From an uncultured Chitinophagales bacterium (GTDB lineage: Bacteria; Bacteroidota; Bacteroidia; Chitinophagales; BACL12): 50,940 nucleotides of DNA. The position numbers and the translations under genes were made by a program. Location: assembly GCA_964638865.1 (NCBI GenBank), contig CAZXBG010000006.1, positions 1 through 50,940 on the forward strand. The letters are read 5' to 3'. Positions 5,362-36,052 of this stretch are shown piece after piece. Each line of letters starts with the position of its first letter. Position 1 is the stretch's first letter. The notes under the pieces are model-generated. The model worked only from the letters and a program-made list of their open reading frames with translations. It was not told the origin of the DNA and searched no databases.

Positions 5362-6855
5362 TTAAAGATTAATATTTAATTCTTTAATAAAAAGGATACT
5401 TTTCGCAATATCCTCATGCAAATACCGGTCAAAATCATTAAAAGAAATTACCTTTCTATATTCAGAAAAGAGATTTTCAATAGTTGGAGATGATTTTGCA
5501 GGCCGCCTGAACTCAAATGCCTGTGCGGCTGTGAGCAATTCGATAGCCAGAATTTTTTCCAGATTTTCTGCTACACGCAAACATTTTGTTGCTGCATTAG
5601 CGCCCATGCTTACGTGATCTTCCTGTTCGTTGCAACTGGAAATAGAATCTACACTTGCCGGTGTGCACAATTGTTTGTTTTGTGAAACAATACTCGCTGC
5701 AACATATTGTGGAATCATTAATCCGGAGTTTAATCCGGGATTAGGCGTGAGAAATTCGGGTAATTTTCTTGCGCCGGATAACATTCGGTAAATTCTTCTT
5801 TCTGAAATATTTCCTAATTCACTTAATGCGATCGCCAAAAAATCTAAACTAAGTGCAAGCGGTTCACCGTGAAAATTACCTCCGCTTAAAATTGCATCAT
5901 CTTCTGCAAATACATTGGGATTGTCGGTAACTCCGTTTATTTCTCTTGTAACAATTTCTTTTACATATTCGATTACGTCCTTACATGCTCCATGTACTTG
6001 CGGTATACATCTGAATGAATAGGGATCCTGCACTTGTTCTTTTTGTGCAAAAAAAGTTTCACTTCCTTTTAATATTTCCAGAATATTTTCCGTAGTTTTT
6101 ATTTGCCCTTTTTGATTTCTTATTTTGTGAATACGTACATCAAAGGGTTCTGCTTTGCAATCCCACGATTCTAAACTTAAACAGGCGATTAAATCAGATA
6201 ATTTTGAAATGCGATCGGCCATCATTAAACATTTAACCGCATGTGCACTCATAAATTGAGTGCCGTTCAATAAGGCAAGTCCTTCTTTGGAACCTAATCG
6301 TATTGGAGCTAAATTAAAATCGTCTAAAACAGTTTTTGCAGATTTAACTTCCCCAGCCTGTTTCATTTCCCCTTCACCAATTAATGCCATACTCATGTGC
6401 GATAAAGGACAAAGATCTCCGCTTGCACCGAGTGAACCCTGTTCGTAAATAACAGGTAAAATATCCATATTAAAAAAATCGATCAAACGCCAAACAGTAT
6501 CAACACTCACTCCTGAATTTCCATAACTGAGGGATTGAACTTTTAATAATAATAATATTTTATTTACTTCATCATCAATCACATCTCCAACACCACATGC
6601 ATGACTTCTAATGAGATTATATTGAAGTTGTTCAATATCCTCATCCGAAATTTTTACTTTACACAATGAGCCGAAACCGGTATTTACCCCATAAACAGGT
6701 TCTTCGCGCTCCTGTAATTTTTTATCGAGGTAGGTTCTGCATTTTTGAATGGCATTTCTAACATCATCCGTTAAGGCCAATTTTGTTTTTTGGCGGAGGA
6801 TGTTGTTGATGGTTTCAATAGTTAATGGTTCAGACCCGATATGATAAGTATCCAT
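5362..6855 (-). CDS. hutH: Histidine ammonia-lyase
   Basis: MIO-forming GSLGASGDL, VYGVNTGFG, NLIRSHACG (HAL-type SH), QDPYSFRC, GGNFHG and QEDHVSMG. ATG 6855 is the likely start. Confidence 0.95.
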   Translation of the reverse strand: MDTYHIGSEPLTIETINNILRQKTKLALTDDVRNAIQKCRTYLDKKLQEREEPVYGVNTGFGSLCKVKISDEDIEQLQYNLIRSHACGVGDVIDDEVNKILLLLKVQSLSYGNSGVSVDTVWRLIDFFNMDILPVIYEQGSLGASGDLCPLSHMSMALIGEGEMKQAGEVKSAKTVLDDFNLAPIRLGSKEGLALLNGTQFMSAHAVKCLMMADRISKLSDLIACLSLESWDCKAEPFDVRIHKIRNQKGQIKTTENILEILKGSETFFAQKEQVQDPYSFRCIPQVHGACKDVIEYVKEIVTREINGVTDNPNVFAEDDAILSGGNFHGEPLALSLDFLAIALSELGNISERRIYRMLSGARKLPEFLTPNPGLNSGLMIPQYVAASIVSQNKQLCTPASVDSISSCNEQEDHVSMGANAATKCLRVAENLEKILAIELLTAAQAFEFRRPAKSSPTIENLFSEYRKVISFNDFDRYLHEDIAKSILFIKELNINL

Positions 6856-6873
6856 AATTATTTGTTTCAGCGA

Positions 6874-6893
6874 CAAATTTAAATTTAAATTTG
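6874..6893. promoter_or_regulatory. Back-to-back divergent -7 elements (hutH and ABC operon) forming a perfect 20-bp palindrome
   Basis: CAAATTTAAATTTAAATTTG gives TAAATTTG on the - strand (6874-6881) and on the + strand (6886-6893). Confidence 0.6.
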
Positions 6894-6897
6894 CAAG

Positions 6898-7806
6898 ATG
6901 CAGGATATAATGACCTTTAAAGGGATAAACAAAAGTTTTGGGGAAGTACAGGCTTTAAAGGATATTACTTTTTCTATACCTGCGAATTCCATTTTTGGGT
7001 TGTTGGGACCAAATGGAGCAGGAAAAACCACACTGATACGCATTATTACTAAAATATTTGCTGCTGATTCAGGACAAATTCAATTTGCAGGGGAAAATAT
7101 GAAGAGCAGTGATTATTCTCAAATTGGGTATATGCCGGAGGAAAAGGGCATGTATAAAAAGATGAAGGTTGGCGAGCACCTCATTTATTTGGGGCGATTA
7201 AAGGGATTGACGAAAGTTAAAGCCAAGGAAAGGTCCGAGTATTGGCTCCACAAACTCAATGCTTCCGATTGGTGGAATAAAAAACTGGAAGACCTTTCGA
7301 AGGGAATGCAACAAAAAACACAATTTATTGCTACGGTTTTGCATGACCCGAAATTATTGATACTGGATGAACCCTTTTCAGGTTTGGATCCTTTGAATGC
7401 AGAATTGATCAAAAATGAAATTTATAATCTGCATAAACAGGGAGTGACTATTATTTTTTCAACACACAGAATGGAACAGGTTGAAGAAATATGTAAAAAT
7501 ATTGTTTTGATAAATAAAGGAAATAAAGTGATTGACGGAGAGGTTGCAAACATCAAAAACCGATTTAAAGAAAATAAATATAAAATAGAATTTACCGGAG
7601 TTCCGGTATTAATAGCAAATGAAGCTTTTGACATTTTGGAGCAGAACGAAAATAGCATGACGGTTAAATTAAATGGAGATACTTCGAGAAATAGTTTATT
7701 GCAAAACTTTATTCAGCAAAATGTGGAGATCAATTTATTTCAGGAGATATTGCCTTCCCTTAACGAAATATTTATTCATCTTGTAAATGATGCTAATCAT
7801 GCATAA
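6898..7806 (+). CDS. ABC-2-type exporter ATP-binding subunit (NatA/YhaQ-like)
   Basis: Walker A GPNGAGKTT, signature LSKGMQQK, Walker B LLILDEPFSGLDP and H-loop STH. Confidence 0.92.
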   Translation: MQDIMTFKGINKSFGEVQALKDITFSIPANSIFGLLGPNGAGKTTLIRIITKIFAADSGQIQFAGENMKSSDYSQIGYMPEEKGMYKKMKVGEHLIYLGRLKGLTKVKAKERSEYWLHKLNASDWWNKKLEDLSKGMQQKTQFIATVLHDPKLLILDEPFSGLDPLNAELIKNEIYNLHKQGVTIIFSTHRMEQVEEICKNIVLINKGNKVIDGEVANIKNRFKENKYKIEFTGVPVLIANEAFDILEQNENSMTVKLNGDTSRNSLLQNFIQQNVEINLFQEILPSLNEIFIHLVNDANHA

Positions 7807-9100
7807 AACCTGGCTGATCATTAGTCGTGAATATATCACACGAGTTCGCAAAAAGTCATTTATTATTTTTACCTTATTAGGGCCATTGCTTTTTCTTGGC
7901 ATCAGTATTTTGCCAATAATTATTGCAACTGCAAATAAGGGATCTCAAAATATATTAGTGAAGGATGATTCCGGTTTAATTACAGCATTGCCCGATACAG
8001 CCGGATTATATTTTAACTTTAAATATAATACCCAGCCACTTGAAGAGTTAAAAACAAAATTTAATTCGTTGGATGACGGATATGATGCCCTGCTTTATAT
8101 TCCGATGATGTTACCTGATGCACCTTACGGCATTGAAATTTACAGCAGCGATCAAATGAGTTTAACTACTCGATTGTATATTGAGAGTATAATTGCAGAT
8201 AAACTGGAAGAAATTAATTTAAAAAATCAGAATCTAAACAAACAACAAATATTAAAATTGCGACCTAAGGTTACCATTGATGATAAGGTTACCTCAGGTG
8301 AGATTCAAAAGGAAGGAGATGCTGTGGTGGCGAGTTTTTTCGGATATGCAATGGGATTTATTATTTATATTGTTTTGTTGATATACGGCACTATGGTGAT
8401 GCGCGGAGTAATGGAAGAAAAAACCTCGCGTATTATAGAAGTTATAATTAGTAGTGTAAAACCCTTCCAACTAATGATGGGAAAAATATTGGGAATTGGA
8501 TTGGTAGGATTGACTCAATTTGTTGCCTGGGGATTTTTGATAACGATTTTAAATATTATTTTGGGAGGAGTTTTCGGAAGTCAATTGGCAGAAATGCAGA
8601 ATGTTTCTGCTGCTCAGGGTGGAGATGCCGATATGTTAGTGATAACACAAGCCTATGAAAGTTTAAGCGCACATCCGATTTATTATTATTTATTAATATT
8701 TCTTACTTATTTTTTAGGAGGATATTTTATTTATGCCGCCCTGTTTGCAGCAATCGGTTCACTTGCAGGGGATGATGATACTGATGTGCAGATGTACGCC
8801 ATGCCGGTTACTTTATTAATTCTCGCCTCTATTTTTATTATGATGAGTGTGGTGCAACAACCGCATACGCCTCTTGCATTTTGGGCGTCTATTATACCAT
8901 TTACTTCGCCGGTTGTAATGCCTGCATTGGTGCCATTTGGTGTGCCAACCTGGCAAATAATTTTAAGTATAGGTATGTTGATTGGAGGATTTATTTTCAC
9001 CACCTTTATTGCATCCAGAATTTACCGAACCGGAATATTGATGTATGGAAAAAAGATAAAATTCAGGGAGGTTATTAAGTGGATGTTTTATAAGGGATAA
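7799..9100 (+). CDS. ABC-2-type exporter permease (NatB/YhaP-like)
   Basis: REYITRVRKKSF, GVMEEKTSRIIE, LMMGKILG and RIYRTGILMYGK; multiple TM segments; overlaps the ATPase stop codon. Confidence 0.9.
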   Translation: MHKTWLIISREYITRVRKKSFIIFTLLGPLLFLGISILPIIIATANKGSQNILVKDDSGLITALPDTAGLYFNFKYNTQPLEELKTKFNSLDDGYDALLYIPMMLPDAPYGIEIYSSDQMSLTTRLYIESIIADKLEEINLKNQNLNKQQILKLRPKVTIDDKVTSGEIQKEGDAVVASFFGYAMGFIIYIVLLIYGTMVMRGVMEEKTSRIIEVIISSVKPFQLMMGKILGIGLVGLTQFVAWGFLITILNIILGGVFGSQLAEMQNVSAAQGGDADMLVITQAYESLSAHPIYYYLLIFLTYFLGGYFIYAALFAAIGSLAGDDDTDVQMYAMPVTLLILASIFIMMSVVQQPHTPLAFWASIIPFTSPVVMPALVPFGVPTWQIILSIGMLIGGFIFTTFIASRIYRTGILMYGKKIKFREVIKWMFYKG

Positions 9101-29555: not shown

Positions 29556-30449
29556 ATGAAAACATTTTTAACATTTGCCTATATCAGTTTGGTATGCTTC
29601 TTTCAACTGGAAGCGCAAACTACCATTGTTTTGCAGCCACATTATGCCGATGGCAGTAACACTTATGTCAGAAGTAATTTTCCGGAAATTCCTGTTATTG
29701 GTTCTACTGACCTTACTGCTTATGCATGGACCTGTGATGGTGACCTTTGCACAGGGAGGGCGTTTTTTAAAATTGGTTTAGAGGAAATACCCTCAGGCGC
29801 TCTAATAAATTCTGCAAATTTGCACCTTTTTGCTAATACTTCTACCGTTATTGGTTTTGGTGGATCAGAACCGCAGACCGGAAATAATGATGCCTATGTT
29901 TATCGTGTAATTGAAGATTGGGATCATGAAACAGTAACATGGGCTATTCAACCTGAAGTAACTACTGAAAATGCATTAGTATTAGCAGAAAGTACTGATC
30001 CAATTCAGGATTATGTTTTAGATGCAACTTTAATGATACAAGATATGGTTGATAATCCGGCGACCTCTTTTGGATTTACAATTCGATTGGAGGAGGAAGC
30101 CGATTATTACAGTAGTTTAATATTTGCATCTTCCTACCATTTTAATGAGGAGTTGCATCCAAAACTGGTTGTAAATTATACTATTCTTGATGCAATAGAA
30201 ACTGTTAAAGTTCCTTCATTTAATATTTTTCCAAATCCTGCAAATAATAATTGCACAATTGTATTTAATGATATAACTACAAATATTTCAGAAATTAGAA
30301 TTTGCGATATCGTTGGAAATGAAATAATGAAAGTTGAGGTTCCTGCAGGTGTAACACATTATAATTGTGAATTTGAAAATTTATCGACGGGAATGTACTT
30401 TGTGTATTCAGACAACATGGCTGCAAGTAAATTGCAGATCATTCGATAA
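29556..30449 (+). CDS. Secreted DNRLRE/CBM96-like domain protein with a T9SS type A sorting domain
   Basis: Signal peptide; TTIVLQP...RAFFKI...IPSGALINSANLHLF...EDWDHETVTW...HPKLVVNY; C-terminal domain FNIFPNPA...LSTGMYFV. Confidence 0.78.
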   Translation: MKTFLTFAYISLVCFFQLEAQTTIVLQPHYADGSNTYVRSNFPEIPVIGSTDLTAYAWTCDGDLCTGRAFFKIGLEEIPSGALINSANLHLFANTSTVIGFGGSEPQTGNNDAYVYRVIEDWDHETVTWAIQPEVTTENALVLAESTDPIQDYVLDATLMIQDMVDNPATSFGFTIRLEEEADYYSSLIFASSYHFNEELHPKLVVNYTILDAIETVKVPSFNIFPNPANNNCTIVFNDITTNISEIRICDIVGNEIMKVEVPAGVTHYNCEFENLSTGMYFVYSDNMAASKLQIIR

Positions 30450-30456
30450 TGAATTA

Positions 30457-32178
30457 TTACCAACCTGTTGCAACATCATCACCCCTTGTATCTGCGCCAC
30501 CCTCCAAGGTGTTATTTTCATAAATTAATATTGCATCCACTCTTCCCATTACATCGCGAGAAACTATTTTATAGCCTTGTGCAGTTAATGCATCAGCAAT
30601 TCTTTTATCAAAATCCCATTCTAATTTAATTTCATCCGGTATCCATTGATGATGAAAACGCGGAGCATTTATACTCTCTTGCATGGTCATATCAAATTCG
30701 ATCACGTTAATAATATTTTGAAATACACTTGTAATTATCGTGGAACCACCGGGGGTTCCAACTACCATAAAAAGTTTATTGTCCTTTAACAGAATAGTTG
30801 GTGTCATGTTGCTTAGCATTCTTTTATTAGGTTCAATTGCATTTGCTTCGCCACCAATTAATCCATATAAATTCGGCTCTCCCGGTTTTGCACTGAAGTC
30901 ATCCATTTCATTATTTAAAATAAATCCGCATCCGGAAACCACAATTCTGGAACCATAACTATCATTTAAAGTAGTAGTAATTGCCACGGCATTTCCAAAT
31001 TGATCAACAATACTAAAATGCGTTGTTTCTTCGCTTTCATAATCGGGAAAATTACCCGCTGCAATTTTTTCAGAGGGTATAATATTAATAGTATCAACAT
31101 TAAACATTCTTTCGGATGTATATTTTTTTGATATTAACTGTTGCACCGGAACTTTTGTAAAATCTGGATCTCCCAACCATGTTGCCCTATCGGCATAAAC
31201 TCTTTTTTCTGCTTCCACCATTATGTGAATAGCATTTAACGAATGAAATCCCCATCGTTTTAAAGGATAATTTTCCATCATATTTAACAATTGAATTAAT
31301 GCAACTCCTCCGGCCGAAGGTGGTGGCATGCTAATCACTTTAAAGTTTTTATAAGTTCCGGAAACAGGAGTTCTCCAAATACTGTGATAATTTATCAAAT
31401 CATTTGAGGTAATAATACCATTTTGCGTTTTCATTTCCTGTACTATCTTTTCTGCAACTTCACCACTATAAAATCCATCTCTTCCTTTATCGCGAATTGT
31501 TATTAAAGTTTTTTCGAGATCTTTTTGAATTAAAGTATCTCCTCCAACCCATTTTGTTTTAATGAAATAATTCTTTCCCTTATTTAATTCTTTTAATTCA
31601 TTTTGTAATCCATTAAGTTCATCCGCCTGATTCTCTAAAAGTGGAAATCCTTTACCGGCGAGTTCAACAGAGGGCTGCACTAATTTATCCCACGACATAG
31701 ACCCATATTTTTGATGAGCAGTCCACATACCATCCACACTTCCGGGAACACCCGAAGCAAGGTGGGAGGTTTCAATTATTTTTCTATCTACCTCTCCGCT
31801 GGCTTTATCTATAAACATATCTTTCGAAGCTGCGGAAGGAGCTTTTTCTCTGAAATCGAGGGCATTCGTTTCTCCGGTATTTAAACGCAGCAGCATAAAA
31901 CCACCTCCACCCAAATTTCCTGCATTAGGATATACAACTGCAAGTGCAAATTGAACTGCTATAGCAGCATCAATAGCATTACCACCCTCTTTTAAAATAT
32001 TTATTCCAACTTCTGCTGCCTCAGGATGGGCACAAACAACCATTGCGGAGTCCGATAAAACGCCATGAATGCGGTTCTGTAAAAAATGATCAGACGGAGT
32101 TTGTTGTTGTTGGGCAGTTTGGTTCGAAGACGATGAACAACTGAGGAGGAATACAAATGCAATAATAAATAAACGCAT
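30457..32178 (-). CDS. ggt: Gamma-glutamyltransferase (lipoprotein)
   Basis: Lipobox LLSC; GGNAIDAA; DFREKAP; autoprocessing site E-TTHFSIVD; LNNEMDDF; GTPGG. ATG 32178 is the likely start. Confidence 0.95.
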   Translation of the reverse strand: MRLFIIAFVFLLSCSSSSNQTAQQQQTPSDHFLQNRIHGVLSDSAMVVCAHPEAAEVGINILKEGGNAIDAAIAVQFALAVVYPNAGNLGGGGFMLLRLNTGETNALDFREKAPSAASKDMFIDKASGEVDRKIIETSHLASGVPGSVDGMWTAHQKYGSMSWDKLVQPSVELAGKGFPLLENQADELNGLQNELKELNKGKNYFIKTKWVGGDTLIQKDLEKTLITIRDKGRDGFYSGEVAEKIVQEMKTQNGIITSNDLINYHSIWRTPVSGTYKNFKVISMPPPSAGGVALIQLLNMMENYPLKRWGFHSLNAIHIMVEAEKRVYADRATWLGDPDFTKVPVQQLISKKYTSERMFNVDTINIIPSEKIAAGNFPDYESEETTHFSIVDQFGNAVAITTTLNDSYGSRIVVSGCGFILNNEMDDFSAKPGEPNLYGLIGGEANAIEPNKRMLSNMTPTILLKDNKLFMVVGTPGGSTIITSVFQNIINVIEFDMTMQESINAPRFHHQWIPDEIKLEWDFDKRIADALTAQGYKIVSRDVMGRVDAILIYENNTLEGGADTRGDDVATGW

Positions 32179-32244
32179 GGTGTGAAGATAAGGGTTATTT
32201 GAAATGGATAAAAACTTCATACCGAAAAAACGCCAACAGATGCT

Positions 32245-32252
32245 TATTTTTG
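32245..32252 (+). promoter_or_regulatory. -7 promoter element for the putative ether-lipid operon
   Basis: TATTTTTG lies 32 nt upstream of ATG 32285. Confidence 0.5.
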
Positions 32253-32284
32253 AGCATAAAATTTATGGAGATCTTTGTCCCGAT

Positions 32285-33538
32285 ATGCCTGAAGCCGTAA
32301 ACTATATCATTTATTCCATTCCTGTTTTTTTTCTGTTAATCGGAATAGAATTGTTATTCGATAAGCTTAACAAAACCGGTTATTACAGGTTGAATGATGC
32401 TTTAACAAATATTAATGCAGGAATAACGGAACAAGTTACCGGTGCATTTTTAAAGGCCTTTGTTGTTGGAATTTATGCCTGGATGTTTGACCATTATAAA
32501 TTGTTTACAGTACCAAATACGATTTTAACCTGGGTGTTTTTATTTATCGCAATTGATTTTTTTTATTATTGGTTTCATCGCCTCGCGCATGAAGTGAATG
32601 TTTTGTGGGGAGGACATGTGGTGCATCATCAAAGTGAGGAATACAACTTAAGTGTTGCATTGCGCCAGGGTGCTTTCCAAAAATTCGGATCCTTTCTTTT
32701 TTATTTGCCACTTGCTTTTTTGGGGTTTAATCCTGTGTTATTTATTGTAATAAGTCAGTTTCAAACATTGTATCAGTTTTGGATTCACACAAAAACGATA
32801 AAATTATTACCGGCACCTTTTGAATATATTTTTAATACGCCTTCACACCACCGGGTGCATCACGGAAGAAATCCGAAATATATAGATAAAAATCACGGTG
32901 GCACATTAATTATCTGGGATAGATTATTTGGAACTTTTCAAAAGGAAGAGGAAGAAGTAATTTACGGTATTACCAAACCATTAAACACCTGGAATCCGCT
33001 AAGGGCGCAGTTGGATTTTTGGAAAGATCTGGCTATTGATCTGAGGCATACCCATAAGTTCAGCGATAAATTAAAGCTGTTGTTTCTCCCTCCGGGATGG
33101 CTGCCGTCTGAACTTGGAGGCCCAAAATTTGCACCGGAAATTACACCTGAAACAGCGGTAAAATACGATACCAGAATACCGGTCGGTTTAAATTATTATG
33201 TATTAATACAATTTGTATTTATACTGACATTTACCTCTTATTTTTTATTCTCCTTCGACAATTTTAATATTCTTACCAATGTACTTTTTATGCTGTTGAT
33301 ATTGTTATCAGTTACTGCGGCAGGGCTCATTCTTGAAGCAAATAGAAATGCATTTTTTGTCGAAATATTTCGACTGATAATAACCATTTTTTTCTATAAT
33401 TATTTATTGCAAAACAATATTATAACCAATTTTTCGGGATTTGATCTGTTTGTATTAATGGCCATTAATCTTATTTCACTGGTTATTTTTACTCCGTTTA
33501 AAAATGTTTTTTCAAAAAAGGTACATGAAAATAAATAA
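32285..33538 (+). CDS. Alkylglycerol monooxygenase-like membrane di-iron enzyme (sterol desaturase/fatty acid hydroxylase superfamily)
   Basis: His boxes YYWFHRLAHE, HVVHHQSEEYNLSVALRQ, YQFWIHT and NTPSHHRVHHGRN; IWDRLFGTF; YGITKP; PPGW; AGMO-type hydrophobic C-terminal extension ending EIFR. Confidence 0.85.
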   Translation: MPEAVNYIIYSIPVFFLLIGIELLFDKLNKTGYYRLNDALTNINAGITEQVTGAFLKAFVVGIYAWMFDHYKLFTVPNTILTWVFLFIAIDFFYYWFHRLAHEVNVLWGGHVVHHQSEEYNLSVALRQGAFQKFGSFLFYLPLAFLGFNPVLFIVISQFQTLYQFWIHTKTIKLLPAPFEYIFNTPSHHRVHHGRNPKYIDKNHGGTLIIWDRLFGTFQKEEEEVIYGITKPLNTWNPLRAQLDFWKDLAIDLRHTHKFSDKLKLLFLPPGWLPSELGGPKFAPEITPETAVKYDTRIPVGLNYYVLIQFVFILTFTSYFLFSFDNFNILTNVLFMLLILLSVTAAGLILEANRNAFFVEIFRLIITIFFYNYLLQNNIITNFSGFDLFVLMAINLISLVIFTPFKNVFSKKVHENK

Positions 33539-34214
33539 TCAGCTATTTCTTAATTTGTATATGGTTGTTGCCATAATACATATTTATACCCTGATTTCAG
33601 ATAATGAACATTACATCCTAATCTCCAAATATTTGTTGATTCCTATGTTAATGCTGCATGTTATTGTTAATTGCAGAAAAGCTTTAAAGAATGCACTTCC
33701 ATTAATAGTTGGTTTATTTTTTTGTTGGGTGGGTGATGTAATACTCATCTATTCGGATGTTTATGAAAGTTTTTTTATGTATGGCCTTGCTGCCTTTTTC
33801 ATCGGACATATCTTTTACATTTTAAGTTTTAGAAAATATGCACATAAAACAACTTCATTGCTTAAGCGTAAACCATGGATTTTGATATTTCCGTTTTTAT
33901 ACACTATAACATTATTGACAATTGTATTTTCAAACCTGGGTGATATGAAAATTCCCGTGATCATTTATGCATTTGCCATAACAGCGATGTGTATTGCATC
34001 CATTAACAGATCAGGCAGAACGAATCAATATAGTTTTTTGTTTGTATTTGCCGGCGCTTTGTTTTTTATTGCTTCCGATTCGATGATAGCAATAAATAGA
34101 TTTTACAGTGAAATAGCATCCGGCTCTTTATTAATTATGAGCACCTATATTATTGCACAATACCTGATCACGACGGGACTTTTATTGCATATAAACGACC
34201 CTGAAAATTCTTAA
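33525..34214 (+). CDS. YhhN/TMEM86-family lysoplasmalogenase
   Basis: SKYLLIP, GLFFCWVGDVIL, GLAAFFIGHIFY, GALFFIASDSMIA and TYIIAQYLI; multiple TM segments; 14-nt overlap with the upstream gene. Confidence 0.88.
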   Translation: MKINNQLFLNLYMVVAIIHIYTLISDNEHYILISKYLLIPMLMLHVIVNCRKALKNALPLIVGLFFCWVGDVILIYSDVYESFFMYGLAAFFIGHIFYILSFRKYAHKTTSLLKRKPWILIFPFLYTITLLTIVFSNLGDMKIPVIIYAFAITAMCIASINRSGRTNQYSFLFVFAGALFFIASDSMIAINRFYSEIASGSLLIMSTYIIAQYLITTGLLLHINDPENS

Positions 34215-34223
34215 ACCGACTGA

Positions 34224-35069
34224 GTGAAAAGTTATATATTTATATTTCTGATACTATGTTTGACAACAGTAACGGGATGCAAAAATAAAAGTGAATCCGA
34301 ATTGAATTCACCTTTAAAAATTATAGGTCACGGGGGTTCGGGATTTGAAACTTTTTTCAGTCAGCTTCCTGCTAATACACTTGCAAGTTTTGAAAAAGCA
34401 TTAATGGACGATGAAGCTGACGGCATAGAAATGGACATACAATTATCTAAAGATGACGTAGTAGTTGTTTTTCACGATAAATTATTAGACAATAAAACAG
34501 ATCTAGCCGGCCCTGTTCGCGATCAGCTTTTTGCCGAACTGATTAAATGTGATTTTCATGGAGATTTTACAATGTTTTCTAAAGGAAAACACTCTATTTC
34601 CTCACTGGAGCAAATACTCACACAATTTAATGACCAATTACAATCCAAATATTTTTATTTCAATATCAAAGTAGGCGTGCACCCTGATAAGGAAAAGTAT
34701 AAATTGGTAATGAGCGAACAATTAGTAAGAATTATTAATGAATTTGATATACAAAAAAAGGCAATTATTGAAACTTCTGATATCAGCGTTTTGAAACAGA
34801 TTCAATTATTAGACAGTTCGATAATTGTGATGCAAGATATTGGGGATTTTGAAAATGATTTTAAATATGTTTTGGAAAACAACTTCGCGGGTTTGGTGGT
34901 AGAAAATAACAATATCTCTGCTGAGCAGGTAATGTTGGCTCAAAAGTCAGGAAAACGGGTTGTTATTTATGGGGAAAAAACACGCGGTGGAATTAGGGAA
35001 GTATTACATAAAAATCCCGATGTAATTCAAACTGATAAAATTAATCTGACGAAAAGATTAGCAGATTAG
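34224..35069 (+). CDS. Glycerophosphodiester phosphodiesterase-family lipoprotein
   Basis: GTG start; lipobox VTGC; IIGHGG, ANTLASF, GIEMDIQLSKDDVVVVFHD and C-terminal DVIQTD. Confidence 0.85.
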   Translation: MKSYIFIFLILCLTTVTGCKNKSESELNSPLKIIGHGGSGFETFFSQLPANTLASFEKALMDDEADGIEMDIQLSKDDVVVVFHDKLLDNKTDLAGPVRDQLFAELIKCDFHGDFTMFSKGKHSISSLEQILTQFNDQLQSKYFYFNIKVGVHPDKEKYKLVMSEQLVRIINEFDIQKKAIIETSDISVLKQIQLLDSSIIVMQDIGDFENDFKYVLENNFAGLVVENNNISAEQVMLAQKSGKRVVIYGEKTRGGIREVLHKNPDVIQTDKINLTKRLAD

Positions 35070-36052
35070 GTTAATCCATGTTTCCTGTTTCTGATCACAT
35101 TTTCTAAATTCCATTCTATTTTATGATCAAACTCCGCCATACGCACCAAACAATCTGTTTTGAGACAAATTTTGCACATTTCAGGAGGAACACAAGCATC
35201 AATATGCACAAACCATTCGTCAGAAGTTTCATGGTGTTTGTGAATTATAGATTCTACTTTTTCTAATTCGTCGTGTGCTTCTTTAACGGTGAAATAATAG
35301 GGAACGGTTAAATGACTGTCGAAATGCAAATTAGCTCCATATTTAATAACACGCAAATTATGAATGTCGATCCAATTCGCTTCTCTGTTTTTATTTAGTG
35401 TATTAATAATGGAATCCAAAAGTTCTGAATCAGCCTCATCCATAATCCCTGCAACTGACCTTCTCACTATTTTATATCCCTCATAACAAATATAACTTCC
35501 GAATAATATTGCAACTGCACTGTCAATCCATTCATATTGAAAAATATATAGTAATGTTAAACCAACTAGTAGTCCTCCGGTACTCCAACCATCACTTTGT
35601 AAATGTTTCCCTCCGGCAATCAGAGTAAGTGAATGTGCTTTTTTCCCTCTGTTTTCCATGATAAGCCCTAATATAAAATTTACTGCACCCGCGAAGGAGA
35701 TTAAAATAATACCATAACCAATATGTTGTATGGTTTGCGGATAAAATAAATTGAATACAGATTTTCCAACAATTATAATTCCGGCAACTAAAATCATACT
35801 GCCTTCAATACTGGCAGAAATAAATTCAATTTTCCCATGTCCATAAGGATGATCCAGGTCACGTGGTTTTGAAGCAAGTATCAAGCTGTATAAACCAAAT
35901 AATCCTGCAACTACATTTACTATAGATTCAATGGCATCTGTTAAAATAGCATTGGAATGTGTTAGGATATAGGCTGTAAATTTTACAAGCAATAACAAAA
36001 TCGCAACACTGACAACAATTTTTTGAAGATTTACATTTTCTACTTTTCTCAT
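35066..36052 (-). CDS. Cation diffusion facilitator transporter
   Basis: SNAILTDAIES, DHPYGHGKIE, HLQSD, IDIHNLR and a Cys-rich C-terminal tail. Confidence 0.9.
   Translation of the reverse strand: MRKVENVNLQKIVVSVAILLLLVKFTAYILTHSNAILTDAIESIVNVVAGLFGLYSLILASKPRDLDHPYGHGKIEFISASIEGSMILVAGIIIVGKSVFNLFYPQTIQHIGYGIILISFAGAVNFILGLIMENRGKKAHSLTLIAGGKHLQSDGWSTGGLLVGLTLLYIFQYEWIDSAVAILFGSYICYEGYKIVRRSVAGIMDEADSELLDSIINTLNKNREANWIDIHNLRVIKYGANLHFDSHLTVPYYFTVKEAHDELEKVESIIHKHHETSDEWFVHIDACVPPEMCKICLKTDCLVRMAEFDHKIEWNLENVIRNRKHGLT

Follow-up and report, generated by a model that had tools for sequence, protein, structure and literature searches.

Two families of enzymes that cut ether lipids are known from animals, and relatives of both occur side by side in the bacterial DNA described here. 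Alkylglycerol monooxygenase (AGMO, also called TMEM195; EC 1.14.16.5) has been investigated solely in animals; it is labile and lacks a solved structure, according to the available text of two accounts (PMC3304488, PMC7911779), and the accessible part of a 2013 review lists its gene for animals alone (PMC3617469). The second family, YhhN/TMEM86, comprises the lysoplasmalogenases TMEM86A and TMEM86B and bacterial proteins from Legionella and M. tuberculosis, for which lysoplasmalogenase activity is reported (available portions of PMC9052158 and PMC11994398); these bacterial members belong to intracellular pathogens and are read as a defence against host lysolipids. A further relevant enzyme, from Thermocrispum, has the fold of the GDPD family and is described, in the available text, as specific for lysoplasmalogen and also active on lyso-PAF (PMC8016129). 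Here we analyze a 50,940-nucleotide stretch of DNA from an uncultured bacterium of the order Chitinophagales (contig CAZXBG010000006.1 of assembly GCA_964638865.1), hereafter the window, in which an AGMO-like gene (gene 1), a YhhN gene (gene 2), and a GDPD-family gene (gene 3) follow one another on the same strand. Bacterial relatives of both animal ether-lipid-cutting enzymes recur together in other genomes as well, which points to a candidate bacterial route for ether-lipid breakdown.

A first-pass annotation of the window had proposed that one operon of three genes handles both types of ether bond together with the head group that their cleavage releases. Our analyses partly support this reading: it appears right for the core pair, given the family membership and linkage of genes 1 and 2, and weak for gene 3, which has atypical motifs and is not co-conserved with the pair. 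The literature that we searched (one library) describes neither a bacterial AGMO-YhhN cluster nor a characterized bacterial alkyl-ether monooxygenase, and we found in it no characterized bacterial operon of this composition, in agreement with what the annotation had stated. The three genes are as follows.

32285..33538, + strand: gene 1, AGMO-family di-iron membrane monooxygenase (predicted), 417 residues; from Pfam, BLASTP, the residue signature, and the tree
33525..34214, + strand: gene 2, YhhN/TMEM86-family membrane protein, putative lysoplasmalogenase, 229 residues; from Pfam, hydropathy, and conserved residues
34224..35069, + strand: gene 3, divergent GDPD-fold lipoprotein, putative phosphodiesterase, 281 residues, GTG start; from Pfam and a structural model

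Gene 1 encodes a bacterial member of the AGMO family

The gene 1 product matches the Pfam FA_hydroxylase family (E 1.4e-29, 103 bits) and is in the same length class as animal AGMO, to which it aligns over its full length at 36-38% identity. By BLASTP, it is 38% identical over 413 residues to an AGMO-like protein of Clytia (E 4e-88) and 36% identical over 420 residues to one of Macrobrachium (E 8e-86), and both alignments extend into the C-terminal helices, to residue 400-417 of gene 1. The eight-histidine di-iron motif of the family is present in the layout HxxxH / HxxHH / HxxHH (H98, H102, H111, H114, H115, H189, H192, and H193), with the sequence HRLAHE at residues 98-103. The C-terminal portion may resemble that of animal AGMO in having a four-helix hydrophobic block, seen as four further hydrophobic segments beyond residue 298, together with a weak match to AGMP_C, the AGMO C-terminal domain. 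This match scores 25.4-25.6 bits, below the Pfam cut-off of 28.3; 11 of 16 aligned homologs match the domain at E ≤ 0.01. The eight-histidine motif, the HRxAHE glutamate, and the AGMO-like length attributed to gene 1 in the first-pass annotation were found, and the C-terminal hydrophobic segments are consistent with the membrane extension that it named.

The glutamate that follows the second histidine lies in a decapeptide nearly identical to that of the animal enzymes. The animal consensus around human Glu137, a residue linked to tetrahydrobiopterin, is given as H-E-[ILV]-N-I-[FILM]-W-A-[AG]-H in the available text of PMC3304488, where an acidic residue at this position is reported absent from other branches of the family; the gene 1 sequence, HEVNVLWGGH, departs from the consensus at two positions, both conservatively (Val for Ile and Gly for Ala). 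Six FA_hydroxylase genes are present in the genome, and gene 1 is the only one with this glutamate, the other five having L, K, R, K, or G in its place. Additional residues essential in the human enzyme may also be retained: by motif context, Q128, H168, D201, N203, W211, and D212 correspond to human Gln162, His201, Asp233, Asn235, Trp243, and Asp244, a mapping made via animal homologs rather than the human AGMO sequence. Unlike animal AGMO, the gene 1 protein is bacterial and encoded in a predicted operon, has a histidine (H204) at the position of the essential Tyr236, and falls below the Pfam cut-off for AGMP_C; many of its YhhN-linked bacterial relatives also lack the glutamate.

A maximum-likelihood tree of 67 rows separates gene 1, its bacterial homologs, and the animal AGMO proteins from four paralogs of the same genome with an SH-aLRT support of 97, and the phylogeny proposed as a check on the assignment thus places gene 1 with animal AGMO. 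The animal proteins fall among bacterial lineages in this tree, the backbone of which is not resolved. We take the tree as support rather than proof, because the four paralogs that form its outgroup have very long branches and eukaryotic sterol desaturases are not included. An exhaustive search of 1.84 billion representatives returned 12347 relatives of gene 1 at E ≤ 0.001. Three animal groups occur among the best 150 representatives, namely the AGMO-like proteins of the cnidarian Clytia and of the prawn Macrobrachium and a two-domain protein from a mite, and a language-model search with gene 1 also lists a eukaryotic AGMO cluster with a score of 0.92. Among solved structures, a sequence search with gene 1 gave nothing below E 0.19, and its AlphaFold model, of mediocre quality (pLDDT 72.8), gave no Foldseek match at E ≤ 0.001. 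Overall, these sequence comparisons assign gene 1 to the AGMO family, apart from the other fatty acid hydroxylase paralogs of the genome.

The family also includes several unusual architectures. The mite protein (P0210; Oppiella nova, 747 residues) has two AGMO-like domains that share a 38-residue motif stretch and may reflect either a tandem duplication or a join made in assembly or annotation. Elsewhere, the AGMO-like domain is fused to a hydrolase of the phospholipase/carboxylesterase type (P0161, 647 residues), to an alpha/beta hydrolase with a TAP-like C terminus (P0162, 838 residues), or to a Polyketide_cyc2 (START-like) lipid-binding domain (P0170, 535 residues). Three loci have a shorter AGMO-like paralog (~310-330 residues, without the C-terminal domain) in tandem after the full-length gene (L014, 7334-8146; L054, 2374-3216; L071, 4801-5622), and these short paralogs form a clade of their own in the tree.

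Gene 2 encodes a typical YhhN protein

The gene 2 product matches the Pfam YhhN family over nearly the entire profile (positions 4-181 of 182, E 3.8e-42), and its hydropathy plot has eight peaks, consistent with eight predicted helices. It is the sole YhhN gene in the genome. The residues K35, G70, D71, H95, G177, S184, D185, and Y208 reproduce the order of eight conserved YhhN residues, putatively of the active site, with equal or near-equal spacing, a correspondence made by spacing and not by alignment to TMEM86. Their counterparts in TMEM86B are K53, G87, D88, H108, G175, S182, D183, and Y206, and mutation of the eight is reported to have affected TMEM86A/B activity (PMC11994398, available text). 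Gene 2 therefore carries the YhhN/TMEM86 motifs that had been ascribed to it, and we regard its product as a full-length, typical member of the lysoplasmalogenase family with putative lysoplasmalogenase activity. It resembles TMEM86A/B and the Legionella and M. tuberculosis proteins in its full-length domain, helices, and residue order. Unlike the characterized bacterial YhhN proteins, it comes from a free-living bacterium of microbial mats and is translationally coupled to an AGMO-like gene.

The AGMO-like and YhhN genes recur together in Bacteroidota

We found at least 579 confirmed relatives of gene 1 in a scan of one genome per species and compared the neighborhoods of the best 80 loci. 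Among the 74 of these with at least 900 nt of room, 34 have a YhhN gene immediately downstream in the same orientation; the YhhN match in one of them (L039) is only partial. YhhN is by far the commonest neighbor, with 33 loci in its cluster versus 20 for the next. The pair is carried by Chitinophagales, Pedobacter, Daejeonella, Hanamia, Flavihumibacter, and one Cytophagales genome, and its carriers occupy at least three separate clades of the tree. Across 251 evenly sampled Bacteroidota genomes, YhhN is present in 35 of the 43 that have a full-length AGMO-like gene, versus 24 of the 208 that do not; the two genes are adjacent in nine of the 43 and within 6-8 kb of one another in three more. 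Only the pair is co-conserved across several Bacteroidota orders; the three-gene set is not. The nearest syntenic relatives (L008-L010) have gamma-glutamyltransferase (GGT), AGMO-like, YhhN, CDF, and PolA genes in the same order as the window and no GDPD gene, indicating that gene 3 is either a local insertion or has been patchily lost. The conservation of neighborhood expected for the proposed operon was accordingly seen for genes 1 and 2, with a GDPD gene following in a single one of the 80 loci.

Other recurrent neighbors at these loci, like the hydrolase and START-like fusions noted above, suit a role in lipid catabolism. An aldehyde dehydrogenase (ALDH) gene follows in five of the 80, in three cases after YhhN, and among solved structures this ALDH3-type protein matches human fatty aldehyde dehydrogenase best (4qgk, E 1.7e-119). 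The genome of the window has its own ALDH3-type gene (G000:C128:262-1488, L099), near the end of a contig, whose product is 41% identical to the pair-adjacent ALDH of the relatives. In 12 loci of a Cytophagales type, a 3-hydroxyacyl-CoA dehydrogenase gene follows.

Cytophagales-type loci (L029, L045, L046, L049, L056, L075, L076, L080, L081, and others; positions ~5500-9000 in each) have a different conserved AGMO-like neighborhood. A 144-residue multi-helix membrane protein is encoded divergently upstream in 16 loci, and a 124-residue lipoprotein without a Pfam family is encoded directly downstream in 16 loci, often followed by a 3-hydroxyacyl-CoA dehydrogenase. Among the other neighbors considered, the genes for asparaginase, deaminases, an M23 peptidase, ParC/ParE, PBP1, and alpha-2-macroglobulin look unrelated to lipids.

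Fusions of AGMO and YhhN, which had been suggested as a further check, were not found. Gene 2 has no match among proteins longer than 402 residues, which is weak evidence; the YhhN open frames of the 251 genomes all have at most 273 residues; and the 30 named Atlas clusters nearest to gene 2 are YhhN only. In the longer representatives of the AGMO family, the additional domains are hydrolase or START-like ones, and a 653-residue open frame of an Acidobacteriota genome has no YhhN part.

Gene 3 encodes an atypical lipoprotein of the GDPD superfamily

The gene 3 product matches Pfam GDPD (E 5.8e-25, 89.3 bits), the only match to this family in the genome, and carries a signal peptide whose lipobox, VTGC, includes a cysteine (Cys19) that is invariant in all ten aligned relatives. 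Its structural model (pLDDT 86.9) has the GDPD enzyme 2pz0 as its top fold match (Foldseek E 6e-19) and superposes on classical GDPDs with TM scores of 0.76-0.92 and on the lysoplasmalogen-specific phospholipase D with scores of 0.72 (query length) and 0.67-0.68 (target length). The classical GDPDs thus rank above the lysoplasmalogen-specific enzyme; all values are close, and the ranking does not settle the substrate. Both types are also matched at the sequence level (2pz0 at E 1.1e-11 and 7ym0 at E 3.9e-8).

Like the Thermocrispum phospholipase D and the classical GDPDs (GlpQ/UgpQ and the T. tengcongensis protein 2pz0), gene 3 has a TIM-barrel fold and keeps both catalytic histidines and the Glu/Asp pair; H36, E69, D71, H84, and K149 are invariant. 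It differs from both in being anchored as a lipoprotein and in belonging to a tiny subfamily, with only 11 relatives at ≥46% identity among 5.8 billion proteins. Alignment to solved GDPDs shows GHGG and PANT in place of the classical HRG and PENT, with neither the arginine of HRG nor the glutamate of PENT, and, with a two-residue shift of the alignment, an Asn-x-Lys takes the place of Glu-x-Lys. The three canonical motifs, that is, HRG, PENT, and the Glu-x-Lys metal/phosphate site, were therefore not recovered, and GHGG, PANT, and N147-x-K149 are conserved across the subfamily in their stead. Gene 3 had been described as a GDPD-family lipoprotein, with glycerophosphocholine or glycerophosphoethanolamine as its proposed substrates. 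The fold and the lipobox bear out the first part of this description; the missing arginine and glutamate make a role as a diesterase of these compounds putative only. We assign the protein to the GDPD superfamily, outside the canonical GlpQ/UgpQ type.

Locus layout and genomic context

The remaining features of the locus are listed below.

32245..32252, + strand: candidate Bacteroidota -7 promoter element TATTTTTG (TAnnTTTG pattern), from a pattern scan
30457-32220, - strand: GGT gene, divergent, upstream of gene 1
35066-36052, - strand: CDF transporter (cation-efflux) gene, convergent, overlapping the end of gene 3 by 4 nt

The open reading frame listing agrees with the earlier description of three co-oriented, tightly coupled genes, with a 14-nt overlap between genes 1 and 2 and a 9-nt gap between genes 2 and 3, and the divergent and convergent genes said to bound them are those for GGT and the CDF transporter. 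The longest frame of gene 1 spans 32204-33538, and the ATG at 32285 (MPEAVNY) fits the N termini of 15 aligned homologs. An alternative upstream ATG of gene 2 at 33504 would lengthen its overlap with gene 1 to 35 nt, and the GTG start of gene 3 at 34224 is backed by homologs that align from the same residue.

The element TATTTTTG sits in the 64-nt divergent gap between the GGT gene and gene 1, 33 nt upstream of the gene 1 start. The single -7 element that had been placed ahead of the genes is thus present and could plausibly act as a promoter; the pattern is not confined to this site, however, and a promoter function is not proven because 29 copies occur on the + strand of the 50.9-kb window, one of them inside gene 3. 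This second copy (34255-34262, + strand), 31 nt into gene 3, may be a chance occurrence or an internal promoter. A sigma-70 scan, which is ill-suited to Bacteroidota, found fewer promoter-like sites than in shuffled sequence and no convincing terminator after gene 3. The spacing of genes 1-3 suggests that they may be co-transcribed.

Judged by homolog names, the organism belongs to the Chitinophagales. Its assembly totals 4.09 Mb across 286 contigs, with a completeness of 98.8%. The DNA of the window occurs mostly in sequencing runs labeled as microbial mat metagenomes: runs X3-X11, which come from nine studies of one year and exclude two possible source runs, contain 0.83 to 0.97 of the sampled words. 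In other habitats, a freshwater run contains 0.69 and a sediment run 0.51 of them. No RNA run is among those listed as containing the locus. The window also encodes, at 29556-30449 (+ strand), a secreted protein that combines a DNRLRE/CBM96 domain with a C-terminal sorting domain of the T9SS, which fits Bacteroidota.

A candidate route for the breakdown of ether lipids

On balance, we lean toward a reading in which the bacterium scavenges glycerol ether lipids with a conserved bacterial module for cutting alkyl and vinyl ether bonds, the aldehyde passing to ALDH3 and beta-oxidation, and in which this lineage has gained a divergent GDPD-fold lipoprotein. Genes 1 and 2 would constitute a conserved two-gene module for glycerol ether lipids of environmental origin, cleaving their ether bond at sn-1; possible sources of these lipids are eukaryotes, anaerobes, and other members of the mat that produce ether lipids. 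The gene 1 protein, predicted to be an inner-membrane di-iron monooxygenase, would act on alkylglycerols or lyso-alkyl phospholipids by hydroxylating their O-alkyl chain at C1', possibly with a tetrahydropterin as the reductant, and the resulting hemiacetal would yield a fatty aldehyde and either glycerol or a glycerophospho head group. The gene 2 protein would hydrolyze the vinyl ether of lysoplasmalogens, with products of the same kinds. The aldehyde could then be oxidized for beta-oxidation by a fatty aldehyde dehydrogenase of the ALDH3 type, whose gene lies at another place in this genome and immediately downstream in some relatives; the linkage of such an ALDH supports the reading because the human enzyme takes the shared aldehyde product in animals. 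Gene 3 would have entered recently, in a restricted lineage, between the pair and the gene that follows it, and its product would be a periplasmic or surface lipoprotein that either splits the released glycerophosphodiester or, in the manner of a lysophospholipase D, removes the head group of lyso-ether phospholipids.

The genome search that had been proposed for pterin and aldehyde dehydrogenase genes recovered, besides the ALDH3-type gene, one Biopterin_H aromatic amino acid hydroxylase, one Pterin_4a carbinolamine dehydratase, and one PTPS/QueD-family protein, and these pterin genes make a pool of reduced pterin plausible. Of the 43 genomes with an AGMO-like gene, 26 have Biopterin_H matches, versus 50 of the 208 others, and such matches are present in eight of the nine with an adjacent pair, an association that phylogeny may explain. 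Many of the sampled Bacteroidota genomes also encode proteins of ~585-620 residues (for example, G122:C1:1941254-1942075) with two separate weak Biopterin_H matches of ~50-59 bits each, apparently a long and divergent version of this hydroxylase domain.

Several observations weigh against the proposed route. With respect to the cofactor, Pterin_4a is so nearly universal (198 of the 251 genomes; 36 of the 43 that carry an AGMO-like gene) that it shows no enrichment and is uninformative as a phylogenetic profile, and 17 of the 43 have no Biopterin_H match. The pterin-linked glutamate, although present in the window protein, is found in only 77 of 150 family representatives and is replaced by Gln or Val in 22 of the 34 YhhN-adjacent homologs; the position of the essential human Tyr236 is a histidine in 78 of 80 bacterial homologs. 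With respect to linkage, 40 of the 74 loci with room have no adjacent YhhN, four Acidobacteriota loci have an AGMO-like gene and no YhhN nearby (the Holophagae genome of one, L084, has no YhhN at all), and the co-occurrence counts overstate independence because the sampled genomes are kin. Gene 3 has no close ortholog in 250 other Bacteroidota genomes, where its best matches reach 26-34% identity and are never neighbors of an AGMO-like or YhhN gene; none of 21 genomes of the same order has a match at E ≤ 1e-8, and L007 is the only locus of the 80 with a GDPD gene after the pair. In the literature, a metagenomic study of 2026 notes, in its accessible part, that no functional bacterial AGMO is known even though 239 metagenome-assembled genomes encode the enzyme (PMC13543475), and the only characterized bacterial AGMO-like enzyme, PRUB680 of Pseudoalteromonas rubra, cyclizes prodigiosin (PMC6667630, available text).

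The last observation means that membership of the AGMO family does not fix the substrate, and gene 1 could accordingly tailor a secondary metabolite or another hydrophobic small molecule through C-H activation. PRUB680, like gene 1, is bacterial and belongs to the AGMO-like branch of the fatty acid hydroxylase superfamily, it is the one bacterial enzyme of this kind with a known reaction, and the family, with its 12347 representatives at E ≤ 0.001, is large and diverse. PRUB680 acts on a pigment and has no link to YhhN, however, and gene 1 has no biosynthetic genes nearby; the conserved neighbors of the family are YhhN, ALDH3, and a beta-oxidation gene, and its fusions are to lipid hydrolases, which together leave this explanation very improbable. 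We also consider it unlikely, if less so, that the pair acts without foreign ether lipids to remodel or maintain the membrane lipids of the bacterium itself (aminolipids, sphingolipids, or sulfonolipids), with gene 1 as a hydroxylase or desaturase and the YhhN protein acting on an endogenous lysolipid. Such a role would be in keeping with the many lipid hydroxylases of the superfamily, with the five other FA_hydroxylase paralogs in the genome, and with OlsE, an ornithine lipid hydroxylase, as the NCBIfam family that gene 1 matches best; bacteria with YhhN, moreover, mostly make no plasmalogens, and the natural substrate is debated (PMC9052158, available text). The OlsE match reaches only 65 bits, however, against a cut-off of 475, and gene 1 is far nearer to animal AGMO over its whole length, including the C-terminal domain. 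The linked ALDH of the fatty aldehyde dehydrogenase type and the beta-oxidation gene likewise fit a cleavage that releases an aldehyde better than hydroxylation within the membrane. The genome has no match to a PEDS1/CarF-type desaturase, a weak argument in that a control search was likewise without a match.

The place of gene 3 in the proposed breakdown of ether lipids is a separate question. It is quite conceivable, although we do not favor it, that gene 3 is functionally unrelated to the pair and encodes a general periplasmic phosphodiesterase for glycerophosphodiesters or phospholipid head groups, used to scavenge phosphate or carbon, that happened to land between the YhhN and CDF genes. 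Its standing as the sole GDPD-family gene of the genome, the synteny of L008-L010 without it, the single GDPD neighbor among 80 loci, and the TAnnTTTG element just inside its 5' end would all suit such a gene. The 9-nt gap, on the other hand, is too short to hold an intergenic promoter of its own, and the altered motifs have been kept under conservation in the subfamily. Among its few relatives, gene 3 again follows the pair in L007, and another relative (P0338) has a longest contig of 5750 nt, as does a gene 1 homolog (P0004), so that a recurrent association is suggested, not shown. The existence of a GDPD-fold enzyme specific for lysoplasmalogen and lyso-PAF (PMC8016129, available text; PDB 7ym0, matched at E 3.9e-8) also argues for a connection.

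Implications for ether-lipid metabolism in bacteria

Beyond the window, we offer a tentative extension, namely that the AGMO-like and YhhN proteins, joined by ALDH3 in some lineages, could form a genuine and widespread bacterial pathway for alkyl and vinyl ether lipids. Such a pathway might use a bacterial tetrahydropterin or, in the Gln and Val variants, another reductant, and the animal enzymes would then be one offshoot of a far larger bacterial radiation. If this is true, the bacterial AGMO-family enzymes would be the first prokaryotic alkyl-ether monooxygenases. The gene 3 lipoprotein could be a new phospholipase D for lyso-ether lipids. A working bacterial AGMO ortholog would provide a tractable model for the structure and mechanism of the enzyme and would bear on the pterin question, the family being a third class of enzymes that depend on tetrahydrobiopterin. 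Chemically stable, ether lipids serve as biomarkers in mats and sediments, and their consumption by aerobic bacteria is not described in the literature that we searched. A conserved operon that unites both ether-bond-cutting families would constitute genomic evidence for a shared pathway, independent of the work in animals.

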